From the NCBI GenBank assembly GCA_951406725.2, contig OX597821.1:97216001-97280000 (forward strand): a stretch of 64,000 nt of DNA, given 5' to 3'. A program made the position numbers and the translations under genes. The DNA is from Octopus vulgaris. Taxonomy: Eukaryota. Below, piece after piece: positions 1,371 through 63,998 of this stretch; the stretch's first letter is position 1; every line of letters starts with the position of its first letter. The notes under the pieces are model-generated. The model saw only the letters and a program-made list of their open reading frames with translations, was not told the origin of the DNA and ran no database searches.

Positions 1371-1411
<41 letters not shown>

Positions 1412-1468
1412 AATACAATTTACTTTACAAATTTGGTCCTTCATCTAGTACAACTTATAGAAATATTT

Positions 1469-1963
1469 TCAGTCATTCAATTTGGGGGAGAACTTAGTTA
1501 TGAAGTATTTTTCCATATTCCTCCTGAAGGAGATGTCATTCTTTGGAAATTTGTAGAAGGAAAAGATCTTAAATTTTCCTTCTCCACATGTATCTAGGTA
1601 TTTAATCAGTGGTATCTTGCGCAGTTCCTCCTGTCGGACATGTAGGCGGTGAATTCTTGCTCGTTGGCATAAAGAATTTCCAGTTTCACCTATATAATCT
1701 TCCTTGTGTGTGTGGCAGGTTATGCAGTATATTACGTTCTGCGTCTTGCAGTTCATATCTGCATTTACTTTGAATATGTGACCACTCTTAAATTTCATTT
1801 GTTTGTCTCCCTCTATGTATTTGTAGGTGGGGTTACTGCAGATCCCACATCTACCATCTCTGCACTCTTTTACAAAGAATTCAGTTTTAGTTTCTGATGA
1901 GAATTTCGCTCTTGTTAGTTGTTTCTTCAGGTTTTTGTCTTGTCGTCTACTGTTTTTATGCAA
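1469..1963 (-). pseudogene. GIY-YIG endonuclease domain of PLE family 1
   Basis: Cys-rich linker (C..GRCGIC) then NCKTQNVIYCITCHTHKEDYIGETGNSLCQRARIH; not in frame with the upstream RT fragment. Confidence 0.85.
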
Positions 1964-2632
1964 TATTTGTTTAATATGTTTTCCATTTTGGGGCTTTGTA
2001 GGACTATTGGTAGGTTTTAATGTATGATTTGAAACATGTTGGTAACTCCAGGGTTGTGTGTGTTTATGAAAGGGATATTTTCTTTGTTTTTTGTTTTGGG
2101 TGTCCTGAGTTGTGGGATGTCCAGTTTCATTGCTCTTGAGATTCCGTTTTTTATTAGTTTAAGGGGGTATTTTTGTTCTAGTAGGAAGTTTTTAAGTTCA
2201 TTTAGTCTTATTTGGAGTGTTTGTGAGTCGGTCACTATGCTGCATATGCGTCTTGCCATACTATACGGAATGTTTCTTTTTATGTGGGATGGGTGGCAGG
2301 AGTAGAAATGTTGATCTCTATATCCAACTAATCCAGAAACGGCGTTCTCAAGTAATCGATGTACGTGTGACATTTCGTTAGTTTTACCTCTATACCTACG
2401 TGAATTATTTTTGAGTATACATTGTCTGGGAGACTTTTCTTATAGTAGAGGAAATAGCTAAACTTTTCTAAAAGTTCGGTGTGTGGTAAAGTAAATTTTT
2501 TTACTGAACCCTAATTATATAACGTAATGTTTTAAATATACCATAAATGGTCTTTTTACATACTGAACACTACTTGGTAAAATTATTAATTAATTATTAA
2601 ATAATTCATTAATTTTACCCTTTTATTATTGA

Positions 2633-2686
<54 letters not shown>

Positions 2687-3356
2687 ATAGACAAAAGACG
2701 AAGGCAGGTTTACGGAAATAAACAAAAGACGAAGGCAGGTGGAATACAAACAAACAATTGTATGTATGTATGTATGTACATATGTTTGGAGGGATATATT
2801 ATCCGGCGGATACCATATTAGCTCTCAGTTAAATTCCAGTTATCGGCTAACCACAACAACCAGTGTTTAACGTCAGTCACACCATGAATTCTTATATAAG
2901 TTGGCACTTATATATATCCTGAGTGCTAACGCACGAAAATCTCGGACCTTAATATTAATCTCTGTGAGTGTGTGTGTGTGTGTATGCGCGTGTAATTGTG
3001 TAATTTGCCCTTATATATGTGTGTTAGTTCATAGGTTAACACACAAACACATATACATGTACGTGTGTGTACGGGTTCAGAAAGGCCTTTTTTTCCTTTT
3101 TCCACTGGTCACCAGTTGCACTTCCCGTGCTATAACTTGTTCTCTAGATCACACTTGACAGACAAGCATTACAAAATGCTGAAATCGTGCTGTCTACCAT
3201 TTTTCTTTTCTTTCAACCTATGTTTATATTGGCTCTGAATGGGAAGCTAAGCTTTTTTAAATACACCTGCAATAATTTGAGATGAATACAAGGAAATATC
3301 AGTTTGATAATTACTCTGTTTACCTGTATATATATACACACACACACATTCACACA

Positions 3357-3404
<48 letters not shown>

Positions 3405-3546
3405 TAAAAATAAGGGTGTCTGAGAGACACCACCATGCCGAAATAGCAGTCAAAACCCTGACTCTAAAAGCCACGTTAAATGTTCATATCGTACCATGAG
3501 ATAAGACAGAGGGACAAAATAGACTAGCAAAAAATATTATTGAATA

Positions 3547-3605
3547 ATTCAAGATCCAGGATTTCTGATTTTGCTTTAAATAAGCTTTACCGTCATCGGT
3601 TGAAT
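3547..3605 (-). ncRNA. Type I hammerhead ribozyme, U4C core variant
   Basis: attcaa CCGATGA [cggtaaagcttatttaaagcaaaatca] GAA ATCC-T-GGAT C ttgaat: 6-bp helix I, helix III ATCC/GGAT, AUC triplet; within a ~370-bp segment (3400-3770) flanked by TA repeats. Confidence 0.7.
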
Positions 3606-3778
3606 ATATCAAAGCACATAAATAGAAATATATATATGCAGAACAAACGTTATACTTACATATACGAACGTCCATACATACATATATATGCACGTATGCA
3701 CAAGGCCAGTTAAATTGCCCGCCAAAACACCTCATAAGCACGATATGGTCAAAATAAACACCGCAGTGTTTATAAATT

Positions 3779-3813
<35 letters not shown>

Positions 3814-3964
3814 ACTCACACACACATACATATATATGTATGAATGTATATATATACAGACATATACATACATGTATATATACAGACATATATACATACA
3901 TGCACACGCGCACACACACACACACACACACATCTGTACATACATTCTTATATATACACACTTC

Positions 3965-9118: not shown

Positions 9119-9690
9119 AAAGGGGGAAAAGAGAGACATACACACACACATACATACATACATACAAATGTATACATACGTATATATAAACATACATATA
9201 TGTATATATTGTTTATGCATGCATATTTATATATATATATATACATAAAGTGCCTGGAGTAATTTGCCAACTTATACGTATACTGATATATAGACGCGTA
9301 AACATTCCGACTCGCATCGACTTTTAGATGATTATTAATATTTGTGAAAAGGCGAATCACGTTCACTCGAAGACAAACGTATTTCTATATATTTTGTTAT
9401 ATGTAACTGGGTTACAGTTTTTTTTTTTGTTTTTTTTTTTACCTTTCACTTGTTTGTTTATATATTTGCTTGCTTATTGCAACACACCTGAGGCTTATTT
9501 TTCATTTTGTTCTGCTTTCTTTCATTTTTCTTGGTTACGCTGCTATTTGACACAAGGAGTTATGTCCCATTAACGCGGCCTTAAAAACATGATACGCACG
9601 CGCTCGAGCGCACGAACACGTACACGTATACACACACCACTGAACTCAACACGCCCCCCCCCCCCATTCTCTGTGGGTTTCCTCTTATTG

Positions 9691-9726
9691 CTTTCTGTCG
9701 AAGAGCGTAGGCTCGAAACGTAAAAG
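9691..9726 (+). ncRNA. Minimal hammerhead-like motif (A6U variant) in a PLE terminal fragment
   Basis: cttt CTGTCGA a gagc-gtag-gctc GAA ACGT A aaag; downstream tail is related to 19803-19868 and 2685-2760; ends in (TA)n. Confidence 0.55.
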
Positions 9727-9813
9727 ACTTTTCCATTTTTTTCCGAGCGTCAAACTAATACACTTGTTCGTTGTACCTACACCTGTCTTCGTCTTTGTTT
9801 TTCTACAGATTTG

Positions 9814-12855: not shown

Positions 12856-12996
12856 GAGTAAGCACATAAATGTGAAACAAGGTGGGAAAAAAAATAGTAC
12901 TCAAAACCAGAGGTAGAGTAATATGCTTTATTAATAAAGCTGCAAAAGCATCACAAAAACTGCTACTGAGAGTTTCACATTCCTGTTCGTCAAACA
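12856..12996 (-). mobile_element. Family H1 hammerhead element, single arm
   Basis: Homologous to 17003-17144; motif tgt TTGACGA aca-ggaa-tgt GAAAC tctca GTA gca at 12961-12996. Confidence 0.7.
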
Positions 12997-17002: not shown

Positions 17003-17222
17003 ACCGGAGTAAACACATAAATGTGAAACAAGGTGGAAAAAAGATTACTCAAATACCAGTGGTAGAGTAATATGCTTTATTTAAAGCAGCAGAAAATTCA
17101 ACAAAATCTGTTACTCTGAGTTTCCCGTTGCCGTTCATCGGACAATCAAAAACTGTCCGATGAACGGCAACGGGAAACTCAGAGTAACAGATTTTGTTGA
17201 ATTTTCTGCTGCTTTAAATAAA

Positions 17223-17223
<1 letters not shown>
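17003..17223. mobile_element. Family H1 hairpin element (70-bp perfect arms, 9-nt loop, ~70-bp one-sided tail) in (TA)n
   Basis: 17075-17144 is the exact reverse complement of 17154-17223. Confidence 0.9.
17153..17190 (+). ncRNA. Minimal type I hammerhead, U4C core
   Basis: ctgt CCGATGA a-cg-gcaa-cg-g GAA ACTC-A-GAGT A acag (GUA triplet); mirror copy on minus strand at 17108-17144. Confidence 0.7.
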
Positions 17224-17266
<43 letters not shown>

Positions 17267-18939: not shown

Positions 18940-18971
18940 ATACAATAATATGTTACATTACTCGATAGTCA

Positions 18972-19034
18972 AGATAAAACTCTGAGTTTCAGATGCCGAA
19001 GTGGAAATCCACAACACCATCTCTTCGGTTATCT
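18972..19034 (-). ncRNA. Type I hammerhead, U4C core, downstream of PLE family 2 ORF
   Basis: agataa CCGAAGA gatg-gtgtt-gtgg-attt-ccac-ttcgg-catc-t GAA ACTC-A-GAGT T ttatct: 6-bp helix I, two-part helix II, GUU triplet. Confidence 0.75.
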
Positions 19035-19226
19035 GGCTATTTGAAAACGCTATGAAAAAATACCGTTATATAAAGGGAAATTACTGTGTTATAACTCTGC
19101 TTGCCTGTGTACTTATACATCGCTCGCATTTTTCGTCATAAAAATTATATAAAAATACATTAAAAATATATAAAAATATATAAAAATATATAAAATCTTC
19201 TTGGGACATAACATAGAAAGCATGTT

Positions 19227-19664
19227 CTATCTGTTTTCTTTAGGTGACCAAAAACGTAACAGAAATTTAGTCACATGTGGGCGTGATCCGAAAAGTTCTG
19301 TCCTTGTGTTTAGACATGTAGTAGGGTCTAAGCTGCTTTTCCAGATAATCCATCTCTCCATGTCGCATAGACCGCACCTTCCGCTGCCGTTGGTATAGGG
19401 CTTACATCTGGCCAAAATCTTCCATTGTATGTTATAATCGACACCTTTATCTCTTAAAGACCAAATATGATTAGATAATTGTGTCGCTTTTCTTTTGTTC
19501 CAGTGCCTAAAGCTCAAAGTGTGGTTATTGAACCTGGCCTTGAAATTACCCTCTGTAAGGCCCACGTATTTCTTTGTCGAAACGGTGTCTTTAGTGGTTA
19601 TAGAGTTTACGGTAGCTTCATATATGATGGTCTTGGACATGCAAGCTCCATTTAGCGGGCACAA
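19227..19664 (-). pseudogene. GIY-YIG endonuclease domain of PLE family 2
   Basis: IIY...YVG motif with conserved R, H, E, N; open for 145 aa; RT missing. Confidence 0.85.
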
Positions 19665-20369
19665 TTCTTTATTCTTGCATGAACAGCTGTTTTCTTGTTG
19701 TGTTTTTGTATGTTATGTTTGATTATGTTTTTAAAATTGGTAGTTGAACTAAAACTAATTTTTAAATTGTGTCTATTGAAGAGTTTTAGTTCAACTACCA
19801 ATACTAATACATTTGTTTGTTTGTACTCCACCTGCCTTCATCTTTTGTTTATTTTCGTAAACCTTCCTGTTATATATATATATATACGACAGGCTTCTTT
19901 CAGTTTCCATCTAGCAAATTCATTCACAAGGCTTTGGTGAGCCTGAGGCTATAATAGAAGACACTTGCCCAAGGTACCATGCAGTTGGACTGAACCCAGA
20001 ACTATGCGGTTGGGAAGCAAGCCTCTTACCACACAGCCATGAATGAATTTTTGTTAGCTTTTCTTGTTCCACAACCTAATACAATATTCATTACCTATAT
20101 AGCATTCTACTTTCTGTCACCTTAACCCCAAACCTTGACCCAGCTGGCTTGCATGAAAAGTACTCCAACTGTGGCCTTCCCATCTTTTACTCAGACATGA
20201 TATATCTATAACTACATTAATTAGTATCTCCTTCCATTTAGCAAGGTGCGATTTAAAGGAAATTTGACTGCTGCGTCTTGCAGATCAAGTGGGTGTTGGG
20301 TACCCTATTAGATCCCAGTGTTGTGAAGTCCAAGACAGCTTTATAAAAGCTGATGTTAAGCAACAAGTG

Positions 20370-25102: not shown

Positions 25103-25734
25103 GTACATACATACATACATACATACATACATACATACATACATACATACATACATACACACACATGCATGCACACATGTACACATGCACACACACACAC
25201 ACATTCTGTTCTTGCTAGACAGTAAGAAGTTCTCAGTTTATCTACATAAAACTGACACACCAACTCCTCCGAAGAAAATTATTTCAATAATATGCCTGAC
25301 ATATAAGAAGCACTACGTACATATATATATACAAATCAAACCTTTCATCCATCCTTATATGCATATATGTATGCACACATAACACCTGTATGTGTGTGGT
25401 TATACATATATGCATACATACAGACATACCTACATGTGTGTGTGTTAGCAAATATGAAAGGGAGATGATGGTGAGTGTAAAAGAAAAAGAGGTCGACAGC
25501 TACATGACAGTTGTTGGTAAGGAGATTGAATAGAAACAATATGACTGGAAGGACGATAGAAGAGAGAATTATTGATGAGAAACAGAGTGAGTGGCTAATG
25601 GTGAAGAGAGAGTGATATGCAGCTACATGATGGTTGGGTGCTGAATAAGGGAGTAAGGAAACATATCTACCACATGAACTACTTTATAAATCTAACCACA
25701 TGTGCCTAGTTATAAATGTTCTGCTTGAATCCAA

Positions 25735-26471
25735 ACAACAAAGAAATGAAATTTAAGAGTGGTCACATATTCAAAGTAAATGCAGATATGAACTGCAAGA
25801 TGCAGGACGTAATATACTGCATTACCTGCCACACACGCAAGGAGGATTATATAGGTGAAACTGGAAATTCTTTATGCCAACGTGCCAGAATTCACCACCA
25901 ACATGTCTGACAGGAGGAACTGCGCAAGATACCACTGAGTAAACACTTAAAGGAAAATTCAAGATCTTTCCCTTCTACAAATTTCTAAAGAATGACACCT
26001 CCTTCAGGAGGAATATGGAAAAATATTTCATAACTAAGTTCTCCCCCAAATTGAATGGCTGAAAATATCTCTATAATAAGCTGTACCAGATGAAGGACCA
26101 AATTTGAAAAGTAAACTGTATTAAACACACACACACACCGTTCTACACATATGTTTTGGTTGTTGAAAATACTACATTAAACAAAGGATATTCTAATATT
26201 TGAATGAAACCATTTTACTTTAATTTGTGGAACCAGTTGCTCCTGTATGATAAAACTTAATATTTATTTAGCTGTCAATCAGTGAGATATTAGACTAAAT
26301 CCATTGAAGATCAGACAACAGACTCAGTAGTTGTCAGTTTATATTCTGTCATCTGTAACTTCAACACAAGAAAGTCTCCTTTTCAGGTATGGACCTTATG
26401 AAATTTTGCTCATCATACATTGAAGGACAAATCTTTCAATTTATAATTTAACAAATATAGTGTAGCATTTA

Positions 26472-55189: not shown

Positions 55190-57230
55190 CATCTGGTTCC
55201 ACTTTCCTTATCCCCCCATTCTATTAAATGAGGCCTTAATATTCGCAAGAAAATTTGCAAATCTCTATTGGCTGGACATCAACTCTATCTTAGCAGCTAG
55301 AAAAACACTTTTGTCTTTTGTTAACAATTATTGGTCCCGTAAATTCCCTATAGATATCTTTGATATAACTATGGGCTCTTTGGACTCTGTTCAGGTTACT
55401 GACCAGGTTGGTCTCTTCTTCTCTCTTAAATAAACCAGCACTTCCTTAGCATACCCAGAGGTCTCACACCCATGGGTACATTTTGAATATCCATTGAATG
55501 TACCTGGAAGGTCCTCATTCAAAAACAGCACTAAAGTAGCCAACTTCTTAGAAATGACTCAACTTTGACCTAACCTAGATTACACTTACCATAAACCAAA
55601 TGAGTCATAAAAATATATCAATGTCCAATCTAATCACCATAGATTTGCTCTAAATGGCATTGTCACTGGTGCTTCAATCAGGATCTATAACCTATCAGCT
55701 AACGAGGATATCTTTGATAATCATAGCTTGTACTATAACCAGGTTCTCCAGAATAGTGGCTTCCACATGAGGATCTCATATATTTCCAGTACTAGACTAA
55801 AAACAAAACTCAAATGTCTATTTCCTAGTACAAAAGCTATGTCCACCAGGTTTGCCTCTATCTATCCACATGCCATCATCCAGCAACTGAATTCTTCTGC
55901 AGCCAGCACAGTAGTTGAATAATTTCCAGCCCACTACACTGGTTTCTAAGCTCTTTCGAAGCAAAAAGTGGAGATCTTACAGATTGCACCCCTATTCTCT
56001 CTCCAAGTTAAATCTTTACCCAAGCTATTTTTCAAAATCCTAAGCTTTAATTTCCCACTACACCACAAAATATTACCCAAAATTTAATTAATATTTGATT
56101 AAAATCTCATACTCTATAACACTAAACTTAGGATCTCTCACTGCCTCTTCCAATAGGTGCAAACTTAGTCATCTTACTAACTGCCCTATAAACCACTCAT
56201 CTACCTCCACCCTTACCTGCTAGATACTGATACTTTTAGTATTGGGAATCCTACCCACTTGAATAATAGTATTGCCCCAAGTACTTGTAACCCTAATGCA
56301 CCTGACTTGCAGTGATGCCCTCTCTCAGCCCCATACAAGTAATAACACCTCTGGTTCTTCCTTCAGGATGACTGATCATATGAATCAGCATAAAATAAGG
56401 ATTAATTCTAAGCCCACCATTGGTGGAAAAACTAGTAATTGTTGGGTCTTCCAACTATGTCTGCTAGATGGATTTTGTTTACTTTATAACATTATATAAA
56501 TGCCAGGTAATTACATCATGTTCCCACCAGGCTATAGTGGCAGTGTTGAACTGAAGCACCAATAGCAGGCTCACCTGAATTCGTTCTCAAATTGAGTTTC
56601 TAAACTCTTTAGTCCCTAGCTAAACACGTGCTTCACCTCAAGTCCAAGGATATTTCTTATACCTTATCCTCATCCATAGTTGGTGGGATCTCCCCATACA
56701 ACACACACCATCGTGTTTTTAAGTTATATTGCCATGAATTGCTGGCTATTCTTCACCATCATAAAACCTCATTACTCAATAGGTTCTCTGATGTAACCTT
56801 CTCATGTAAGCACAAACTTTATTCCACATTTTCTCATTATGTACAGTCTTTATGATGTCTCCTAATTGTGGATAAAGCTCATTCTTACTATTTAGCTATG
56901 TTAGCACCATTTTCTCTCTCCTTTCTCCTTATCTCAGCATATCTCTTCCTCTCTCTTTGTGTGATTAACTGCCATCCTTAAATGAGTTACTGTCTTCTTA
57001 GATAGATTACCTTACCCACCATTGATGTTTGCTTTTACAAAACTGACTTTTACTCTATCTTGCTCTTTCTCACTGTTTCTTGTATTCTATGTTTGTTATT
57101 TCCTTCCTATGTCATAAATATCCTCCTCCTTCTCCATGCCTACCATTTCTTTTATTCTACCTCTCTTCCTTCCTTTCTATGTCATACAAATCTTCCTCTC
57201 TTTTAAAATAGTTATATATGTTGGCACTAC
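55190..57230 (-). mobile_element. Possible ancient, heavily decayed LINE
   Basis: 2 kb without microsatellites, purine-rich minus strand, isolated YGAE-like remnant near 56330; no open frame. Confidence 0.25.
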
Positions 57231-62528: not shown

Positions 62529-63672
62529 ATGATGGCCGTCCACTCGTGACCGAGGAAGACCATTGCCGACCATCAGGAACATTGTGCGCTCTAGGACTAA
62601 CTTATATTTTGCATTTGCGGCTCCATTGGAGGCTAATGAGCCCTGCTCTTGACAAGCATACACGACTGCAAACATTGCAGACCAAGCTTTCCCCATTCAC
62701 TATACGAGCCATGCACTTTCGCACAGCTCACTTAAGTTCTTCATGCTGGATACGTGCTCTCTCAAAAGTGTCGATCCCCTCCTTAACCTGCTTTCTCCAT
62801 CTGTGACGATGACAGGCATTGTTCTCCCAGTCAGTGTCCTGCATATAAAAAGCCTTTAACGAGGACTTGACACAGTCCTTAAATCGCAGCCTTGGTTTCT
62901 GCCGGAGTCTCCTTCCATTCACAAGTTCTCCATAGAGCATCTGCTTAGGAATCCTTCTATCCTCCATTCTAATAAGGTGTCCAGTCCAACGCAACCAGTG
63001 CTTGTGTACCATTGCCTCAATACTCAAGATATCAGCTGTCCTCAGGATCTGTGTGTCTGGAATTTTTGAGGTCCAGCCAACATTGAGAATGTGTCTGAGA
63101 CATCTCTGATGAAAACGTTCAAGGACCCTTACCTGACGTTTGTACAGAGTCCATGTCTCACATGAGTAGAGAAGCAATGTCAGTACACAAGCACGGTACA
63201 CAGCAACTTTTGTATGCCTTGCGATGCCATGTTGGGACCAGACACGAGACTGAAGAGACCAGAAGGAATTAGTTGCTCTCTGCAACCTGAAAGATATTTC
63301 CTCATCCAGGGAGCAAGAACGGCTGAGTGTGCTGCCCAGATAGACAAACTTATCTACTACCTTCAGAATTGTTCCTTCAACAAAGATAGCTGGTTCTATA
63401 TATGGATTTCCTGGTGCAGGCTGGAACATTACAACAGTCTTGTCCAGGCTAATGCTGAGTCCAAATGCCCTGCAAGAAGCAGAAATGCAATTCATGAGTA
63501 TTTGCATGTCATCCACTGTATGAGTGACTAAGTCACAGTCATCTGCATAAAGGAGGTCACGAATAATAGACTGGGACACCTTTGAATTGGCAGCAAATCG
63601 GCGAAGATTAAAGAGGCGGCCAGAAGATCGATATCTGACATATATTCCCAGAGAGTTAATCTTAGCAAAAGC
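62529..63672 (-). mobile_element. RTE-clade LINE, 5'-truncated, RT domain to 3' end
   Basis: LLYADDCDL, FGLSISLDKT, FVYLGSTLS, LLYSCETW, LRWTGHLIRMEDRRIPKQMLYGEL; frame continues past the TGA at 62728 into CNVCSRVCLSRAGLIS; flanked by CATA/TA repeats. Confidence 0.95.
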
Positions 63673-63719
63673 ATACACATATATATACATACATATACAT
63701 ACATACATATACATAAATA

Positions 63720-63755
<36 letters not shown>

Positions 63756-63761
63756 TATATA

Positions 63762-63998
63762 CTTTATTTAAAAGCAGCAGAAATTTAACTAAAACTGTTA
63801 CTCGGAGGTTCACGTTCCTGTTCGTCGGATAGTTTTGTTAAAATATTTTAACAAAACTATCCGACGAACAGGAACGTGAACCTCCGAGTAACAGCTTTTG
63901 TTAAATTTCTGCTGCTTTTAAATAAAGCATATTACTCTACCTCTGGTATTTGAGTACTCTTTTTTCCACCTTGTTTCACATTTATGTGTTTACTCCGG
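63762..63998. mobile_element. Family H1 hairpin element (83-bp arms, no loop, one-sided tail)
   Basis: Palindrome centred at 63844/63845; hammerhead relic ctat CCGACGA acaggaacgt GAAC ctc-c-gag TA acag at 63857-63894. Confidence 0.88.

Follow-up and report, generated by a model that had tools for sequence, protein, structure and literature searches.

The minus-strand motif at 3547..3605 (H3) is likely the type I hammerhead of a 3' terminal repeat that belongs to an abundant, Hydra-like family of Penelope-like elements (PLE). It lies in a solo, ORF-less copy placed in (TA)n. Core position 4 is U in most of the family (U4). It is C (C4) in an amplified subfamily that has its largest share in organism A, and H3 is one of the copies with C4. 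PLE hammerheads, the host element type and natural U4C changes are already known, and H3 is a modest variant of these. The window is the whole 64-kb stretch of DNA that was analysed.

The motif comprises these parts, all on the minus strand:

3547..3605, type I hammerhead motif H3, copy of the C4 subfamily (sequence, pattern scan)
3600..3605, helix I, 5' strand (sequence; without a variant of at least 5% among the rows listed)
3593..3599, core box C3-C4-G5-A6-U7-G8-A9 (CCGAUGA); position 4 is 3598, U/C polymorphic in the family
3566..3592, helix II region, 27 nt between the boxes (sequence, family depth and folding)
3562..3565, G12-A13-A14-A15.1 box (GAAA; sequence)
3554..3562, helix III, quasi-palindromic, 3-4 bp around a 1-nt loop (sequence, folding)
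3553, C17 (sequence and hammerhead numbering); U16.1 is at 3554, giving an AUC triplet
3547..3552, helix I, 3' strand (sequence); six Watson-Crick pairs with 3605-3600

Three helices surround the core, with the open ends in helix I, as a type I hammerhead requires. Every core element is present except U4, replaced here by C; in the family, U4 holds 51-89% of depth. H3 also has the features of hammerheads in PLE terminal repeats (pLTR). These are an extra nucleotide after A9 (C3592), the pair G10.1-C11.1 (G3591-C3567) and a helix III that is self-complementary with one mismatch. An additional A precedes G12. The base of helix II is a C.A opposition (3592/3566), followed by G-C, G.U and U-A at 3591-3589/3567-3569. 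Farther in, there is a hairpin of 4 bp (3585-3582/3576-3573). From the hammerhead consensus, the predicted cleavage site is between 3553 and 3552.

The strict pattern was scanned over both strands of the 64 kb. Its three matches, at 3599, 17157 and 19028, carry C4 without exception; U4, A4 and G4 gave none. When the 64 kb were shuffled 150 times with local dinucleotide content preserved, the same pattern had no match on either strand. A looser pattern with zero mismatches gave 0.02 matches per shuffle. Rfam returned no hammerhead match at the gathering threshold in the window, and no hammerhead model at E<=10 within 3400-3700. Every part that the original prediction had listed is found where it was placed, although helix II, with its C.A base and three pairs, had been left undescribed. 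By its sequence H3 is a genuine motif of the self-cleaving hammerhead class.

The family was studied in contigs from four runs (organisms A, B, C and E, one run per organism) over a 320-bp stretch that includes H3. These runs had 1371, 1725, 960 and 448 contigs on the stretch, respectively, and the stretch is present in 20 of the 24 listed runs, with six organism codes. None of the listed runs with the stretch is from RNA, which says nothing about expression. With 448-1725 contigs per run, H3 represents an abundant repeat family common to several species. At 3598, U4 accounts for 50.9, 69.3, 81.7 and 88.9% of the summed depth in the four organisms (in 13, 10, 7 and 6 contigs). The C4 share is 11-49%, highest in organism A, where both forms are about even; these shares are rough, since summed contig depth does not measure copy number and a query with C4 may enrich contigs of that form. 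Run X1 is possibly the source of the window itself and hence not independent. Since U4 is the majority in three organisms and about even in A, C4 is not the consensus of the H3 family. It marks a large amplified subfamily, neither the consensus nor a per-copy decay.

Position 4 stands out within the motif. None of the other core positions reaches 5% variation in the family. Among 30 positions of the core, helix I and helix III, none showed variation of at least 5%, versus 33 of 261 flanking positions (Fisher p=0.022 among the rows listed, becoming 0.11 if one further A>G row falls inside the core or helices). Helices I and III are invariant, so no covariation was seen within the family. In helix II, position 3568 is C in 98-99.8% of family depth, and the U that makes a G.U pair is private to the H3 copy. 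Near-private changes of the copy lie at 3470, 3568 and 3625, where the family has another letter in 85-99.8% of depth. A minor form of the family (19-32%) has changes at 3567 and 3569 and keeps wobble pairs. At 3558, rare contigs in three runs seem to have one extra base in the helix III loop, giving a 2-nt loop. A loop of this size is also found among the Hydra-clade motifs listed in PMC8557442.

Two further CpGs of the H3 copy (~3665/3666 and ~3669/3670) show the same one-sided change as position 4, at 27-70% of depth. At 3598, ~3666 and ~3670 the letters are C versus U on the sense strand of the element, with the lowest shares in organism A. The three CpG sites are possibly linked subfamily markers. 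More speculatively, fold-back transcripts could have undergone A-to-G change in their antisense arm. An origin of U4 by CpG deamination copy by copy was rejected: no G5A row reaches 5% in the four runs, and four of nine CpGs have no row at all.

The window holds two other sets of hammerheads for comparison, H1 and PLE2:

17095..17200, no strand assigned, H1 fold-back pair of C4 motifs, with C3 at 17157 (+) and 17141 (-)
16453 (+), 63861 (+) and 63828 (-), other H1 copies, all C4
12993 (-), H1 copy with U3 and U4
18970..19712, minus strand, PLE2, a GIY-YIG remnant with a CxCX5C linker (19227-19712), then a C4 hammerhead (C3 at 19028)

H1 has six copies in the window, five of them with C4; counting each fold-back pair once, three of four loci have C4. 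The GAAA box is damaged in three of the C4 copies. H1 copies that are 9-15% divergent have C4 in common. Two fold-back pairs, each an inverted and a direct copy joined, lie at 17070-17228 and 63757-63927, with C4 in both arms. Such a pair of inverted and direct copies is the usual arrangement of PLE insertions. PLE2 is present once in the window, with C4 (1/1). Its remnant has a visible CxCX5C linker and CxxC and no CCHH, which is the signature of the Hydra clade.

H1 and PLE2 have an identical helix III of 9 nt. Compared with it, helix III of H3 has two pairs changed on both sides, and the pairing is maintained. H3 had been described as unrelated to H1 or PLE2. This is true of the primary sequence (no cross-matches at E<=1), but the architecture is common to all three. 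The three families had likewise been counted as independent. This is doubtful because H3, H1 and PLE2 have one architecture, that of the Hydra clade, and H1 and PLE2 even the same helix III. Their likeness suggests a single architectural clade and not three separate origins.

Other remains of elements were observed in the window, which is AT-rich, filled with microsatellites and scattered with remnants of GIY-YIG and reverse-transcriptase genes. Two one-mismatch motifs, at 9695 (+, U4) and 10215 (-, C4), are of a kind that a shuffled window yields 0.61 times on average and were left out of the U4/C4 counts. The one at 9695 resembles a decayed U4 minimal hammerhead before a terminal sequence; with its core mismatch, it alone is not above chance. 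A short terminal sequence adjacent to TA recurs at 9690-9805 (+), 2683-2763 (+) and 19807-19868 (-). Remnants of another GIY-YIG PLE family lie at 1410-2439 (-) and 25700-26124 (+) and agree at 88% over 293 bp. In each, a partial hammerhead-like box with most of helix II missing is followed shortly by a terminal (CA)n. At 55209-55800 and 56613-56816 (+) there is an old broken remnant similar to the reverse transcriptase (RT) and endonuclease of Hydra-like PLEs (tblastn). Finally, an open frame of 369 aa at 62728-63837 (-) encodes a LINE-type reverse transcriptase; it adjoins, and is interrupted by, an H1 fold-back insertion.

We compared H3 with 26 Hydra-clade motif rows in File S2 of PMC8557442 (Craig et al. 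2021), counted by eye. Among these rows, helix III has four pairs and a 1-nt loop in 17, the base of helix II is an unpaired opposition in 15, and position 4 is U in all 26, including the octopus Hydra-1_oBim. Nearly all Hydra families insert in (TA)n. H3 is similar to these PLEs in its type I motif near the 3' end, the form of helix III, the opposition at the base of helix II and the (TA)n target. Likewise, PLE-X1_cBra of the Hydra clade has the same C.A opposition in helix II, and helix III of Penelope-3_HM is identical to that of H1 and PLE2. On the other hand, C4 occurs in a large H3 subfamily versus none of the 26 rows. H3 has U15.2-A16.2 (the AUC triplet), whereas all 26 rows have C15.2-G16.2. 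It also differs in its C.A rather than U.U opposition, in a 27-nt helix II region with an inner hairpin and in having no ORF attached.

The (TA)n insertion of the H3 fragment is that of the Hydra clade, although it is not specific, being common to Naiad and others. PLE and Hydra membership is suggested by architecture and target site only. H3 is filed here as Hydra-like and not as a Hydra member because no ORF is linked to its family. Candidate parents were rejected. The motif of Hydra-1_oBim differs by eye, and the 3' ends of the octopus Naiad_Obim, Naiad_Ovul and Naiad_Omin are not similar (by eye and in short-word searches). A comparison of a Hydra-like protein with viral contigs found no relative. 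In metagenome contigs, a 20-nt pattern gave six loci; none matches the element beyond the pattern (the longest other match was 13 nt), and they were rejected as chance.

The minimal hammerheads of PLEs offer a second comparison. In Fig. S3 of Cervera and de la Pena 2014 (PMC4209133), U4 is present in 56 of 56 motifs. H3 is like these in being type I, in the extra nucleotide after A9 and in a palindromic helix III suited to dimers. They are also mostly solo dispersed copies, with the AUC triplet in several insect rows. Unlike H3, the rows listed there have U4 throughout; in most of them helix III is limited to 0-2 pairs and G12 is not preceded by an additional base. An AUC triplet is described as fast once folded and prone to misfold during transcription (PMC1636495).

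These comparisons bear on a somewhat doubtful alternative. It says that C4 was ancestral in the sub-clade and was inherited once by H1, PLE2 and H3. The U4 majority of the H3 family would then stem from reversion in a master copy, and deamination at the C4-G5 CpG could have caused it. This departs from our preferred reading in the direction of change. C4 is indeed present in all three motif families with their architecture intact. It is carried by H1 copies as much as 9-15% apart, and the identical helix III of H1 and PLE2, as well as the same one-sided change at the two other CpGs of the H3 copy, are consistent with it. However, U4 is the hammerhead consensus, the state of all Hydra and PLE rows above (both sets found with descriptors requiring U4) and the majority in three of the four organisms. 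We keep the reading of a U4 family with an amplified C4 subfamily as the more probable one.

The fragment that carries H3 is delimited as follows:

3401..3770, minus strand, ORF-less repeat fragment of ~370 bp, probable 3' end or pLTR of a PLE
3360..3400, no strand assigned, (TA)n at the 3' end of the H3 element
3771..3898, no strand assigned, degenerate (TA)n on the 5' side of the H3 element

It is the single copy of its family within the 64-kb window. Family contigs cover it up to 3711. As their loose ends there are like the window sequence that follows, the element probably extends to about the (TA)n at 3771. TA-rich loose ends are seen at 3402. The segment had been called ORF-less and flanked by TA. 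Both are true, but the element does not end at the short TA stretch near 3630. A tblastn search with PLE proteins gave no match in the fragment, and no ORF with RT and GIY-YIG, as expected of a PLE, was found there. No contig on the H3 stretch is joined to coding sequence; the stretch ended at 3720, short of an upstream ORF. Four opposite-strand joints, each in a single contig, fit weakly with the inverted copies of PLEs.

The lack of coding sequence in the fragment and of contigs joined to it might suggest a non-autonomous hammerhead repeat (SINE-like, or a non-LTR retrozyme monomer) instead of a truncated coding PLE. Retrozymes are described as PLE derivatives and found as monomers in bioRxiv 10.64898/2026.07.22.740005. 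They resemble H3 in being ORF-less and PLE-related, with a type I hammerhead, in animal genomes. We consider this unlikely. The non-LTR retrozymes of that source have at least two tandem hammerhead units, whereas H3 is single in the window with no tandem seen, and no head-to-tail joints are listed among the family contigs. The absence of a coding join also counts for little, as an upstream ORF would lie beyond the end of the stretch. Moreover, architecture and target match the coding Hydra PLEs. The truncated end of a coding PLE remains our preferred reading.

The original prediction took C4 as a fixed, lineage-wide core variant of this genome, carried by three independent families. All three strict-pattern matches have C4, as do three of four H1 loci. 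However, the H3 family is mostly U4, the H1 locus at 12993 and Hydra-1_oBim have U4, and the three families have one common architecture. Hydra-1_oBim is relevant here only if the window is octopus-like, as its repeat landscape may suggest. A fixed variant is thus very improbable for the genome, and its strict form is refuted for the H3 family, with a U4 consensus at 51-89% of depth. Decay of position 4 in a dead copy, which that prediction had argued against, is slightly less credible still. The H3 copy does have near-private changes at 3470, 3568 and 3625, one of them in helix II. Nevertheless, C4 reaches 11-49% of depth in four organisms while the other core positions stay below 5%, and C4 makes a CpG instead of removing one. 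Last, a chance fit of the pattern in AT-rich DNA is effectively refuted by the empty shuffles, the conservation in the family and the match in architecture, despite the unexceptional folding of the monomer and the absence of an Rfam match.

Nearest-neighbour folding gave the active monomer fold of H3 -1.7 kcal/mol versus -8.9 kcal/mol for the minimum-energy fold. With U4 the values are -4.3 versus -9.6 kcal/mol; the active monomer fold is thus unfavourable with either letter, in a model that ignores tertiary contacts. The folding z-score of H3 is -1.5. In the predicted competing hairpin, C3-N4-G5 is paired to helix II (5' strand). With C4 this core-sequestering hairpin would gain 2.2 kcal/mol in stability, and position 4 would be unpaired with a probability of 0.01 instead of 0.19. 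PLE2 (18990-19030, -) would likewise have a competing fold stabilised by C4, as its core hexamer is a perfect complement of six nucleotides in helix II (3' strand). Pairing of this sort between core and helix II also exists in H1 copies, in a weaker form. Between two molecules, helix III of H3 is predicted to form a duplex of 8 bp with one U.U mismatch (-8.1 kcal/mol).

By analogy with published PLE work (PMC4209133), two motifs in a tandem element transcript would pair via helix III. They would then cut after C17 and trim the retrotransposition RNA. In vitro cleavage rates of PLE hammerheads are low according to that source. C4 would probably slow cleavage, through a weaker core and the C4-stabilised competing hairpin, without blocking the spread of the element. 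The same U4C substitution in a viroid hammerhead considerably lowered in vitro activity and allowed infectivity (Ambros and Flores 1998, as cited in PMC3088659). It was a single variant in an RNA replicon, whereas H3 belongs to an amplified subfamily of a genomic retroelement. The H3 copy itself probably cuts weakly or is inert because it is solo in the window, has the G.U lesion in helix II and has the C4-stabilised competing hairpin. The spread of the C4 subfamily suggests that fast cleavage is not needed for amplification. This agrees with the remark that PLE hammerheads may be dispensable or parasitic (Craig et al. 2021, PMC8557442).

Searches with CUGANGA had been predicted to miss these motifs. 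This is correct for the C4 copies, but a descriptor with CYGANGA has already been published (PMC13481778). The 27-nt spacer of H3 alone exceeds the 7-17 nt of a published core descriptor. Annotation with CUGANGA only undercounts such motifs. In the literature searched, no account of a C4 subfamily amplified within a PLE turned up; it may be covered by Lunse et al. (RNA Biol), who reportedly described many PLE hammerhead variants.

A broader proposal is tentative, with the chances somewhat against it. C4-core hammerheads may have arisen or persisted across several PLE families of this lineage and been amplified to large shares, in one organism as much as half of a family, with a slowed or switched-off ribozyme being tolerated or favoured in retrotransposition. 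The different U4 and C4 shares among the four organisms make the role of the hammerhead in PLEs testable. The split offers copy counts, subfamily ages and a kinetic comparison of one letter as routes for such a test. If the proposal is true, the presence of sister subfamilies with U4 and with C4 in several species would amount to a natural experiment on the benefit of hammerhead cleavage to PLEs.
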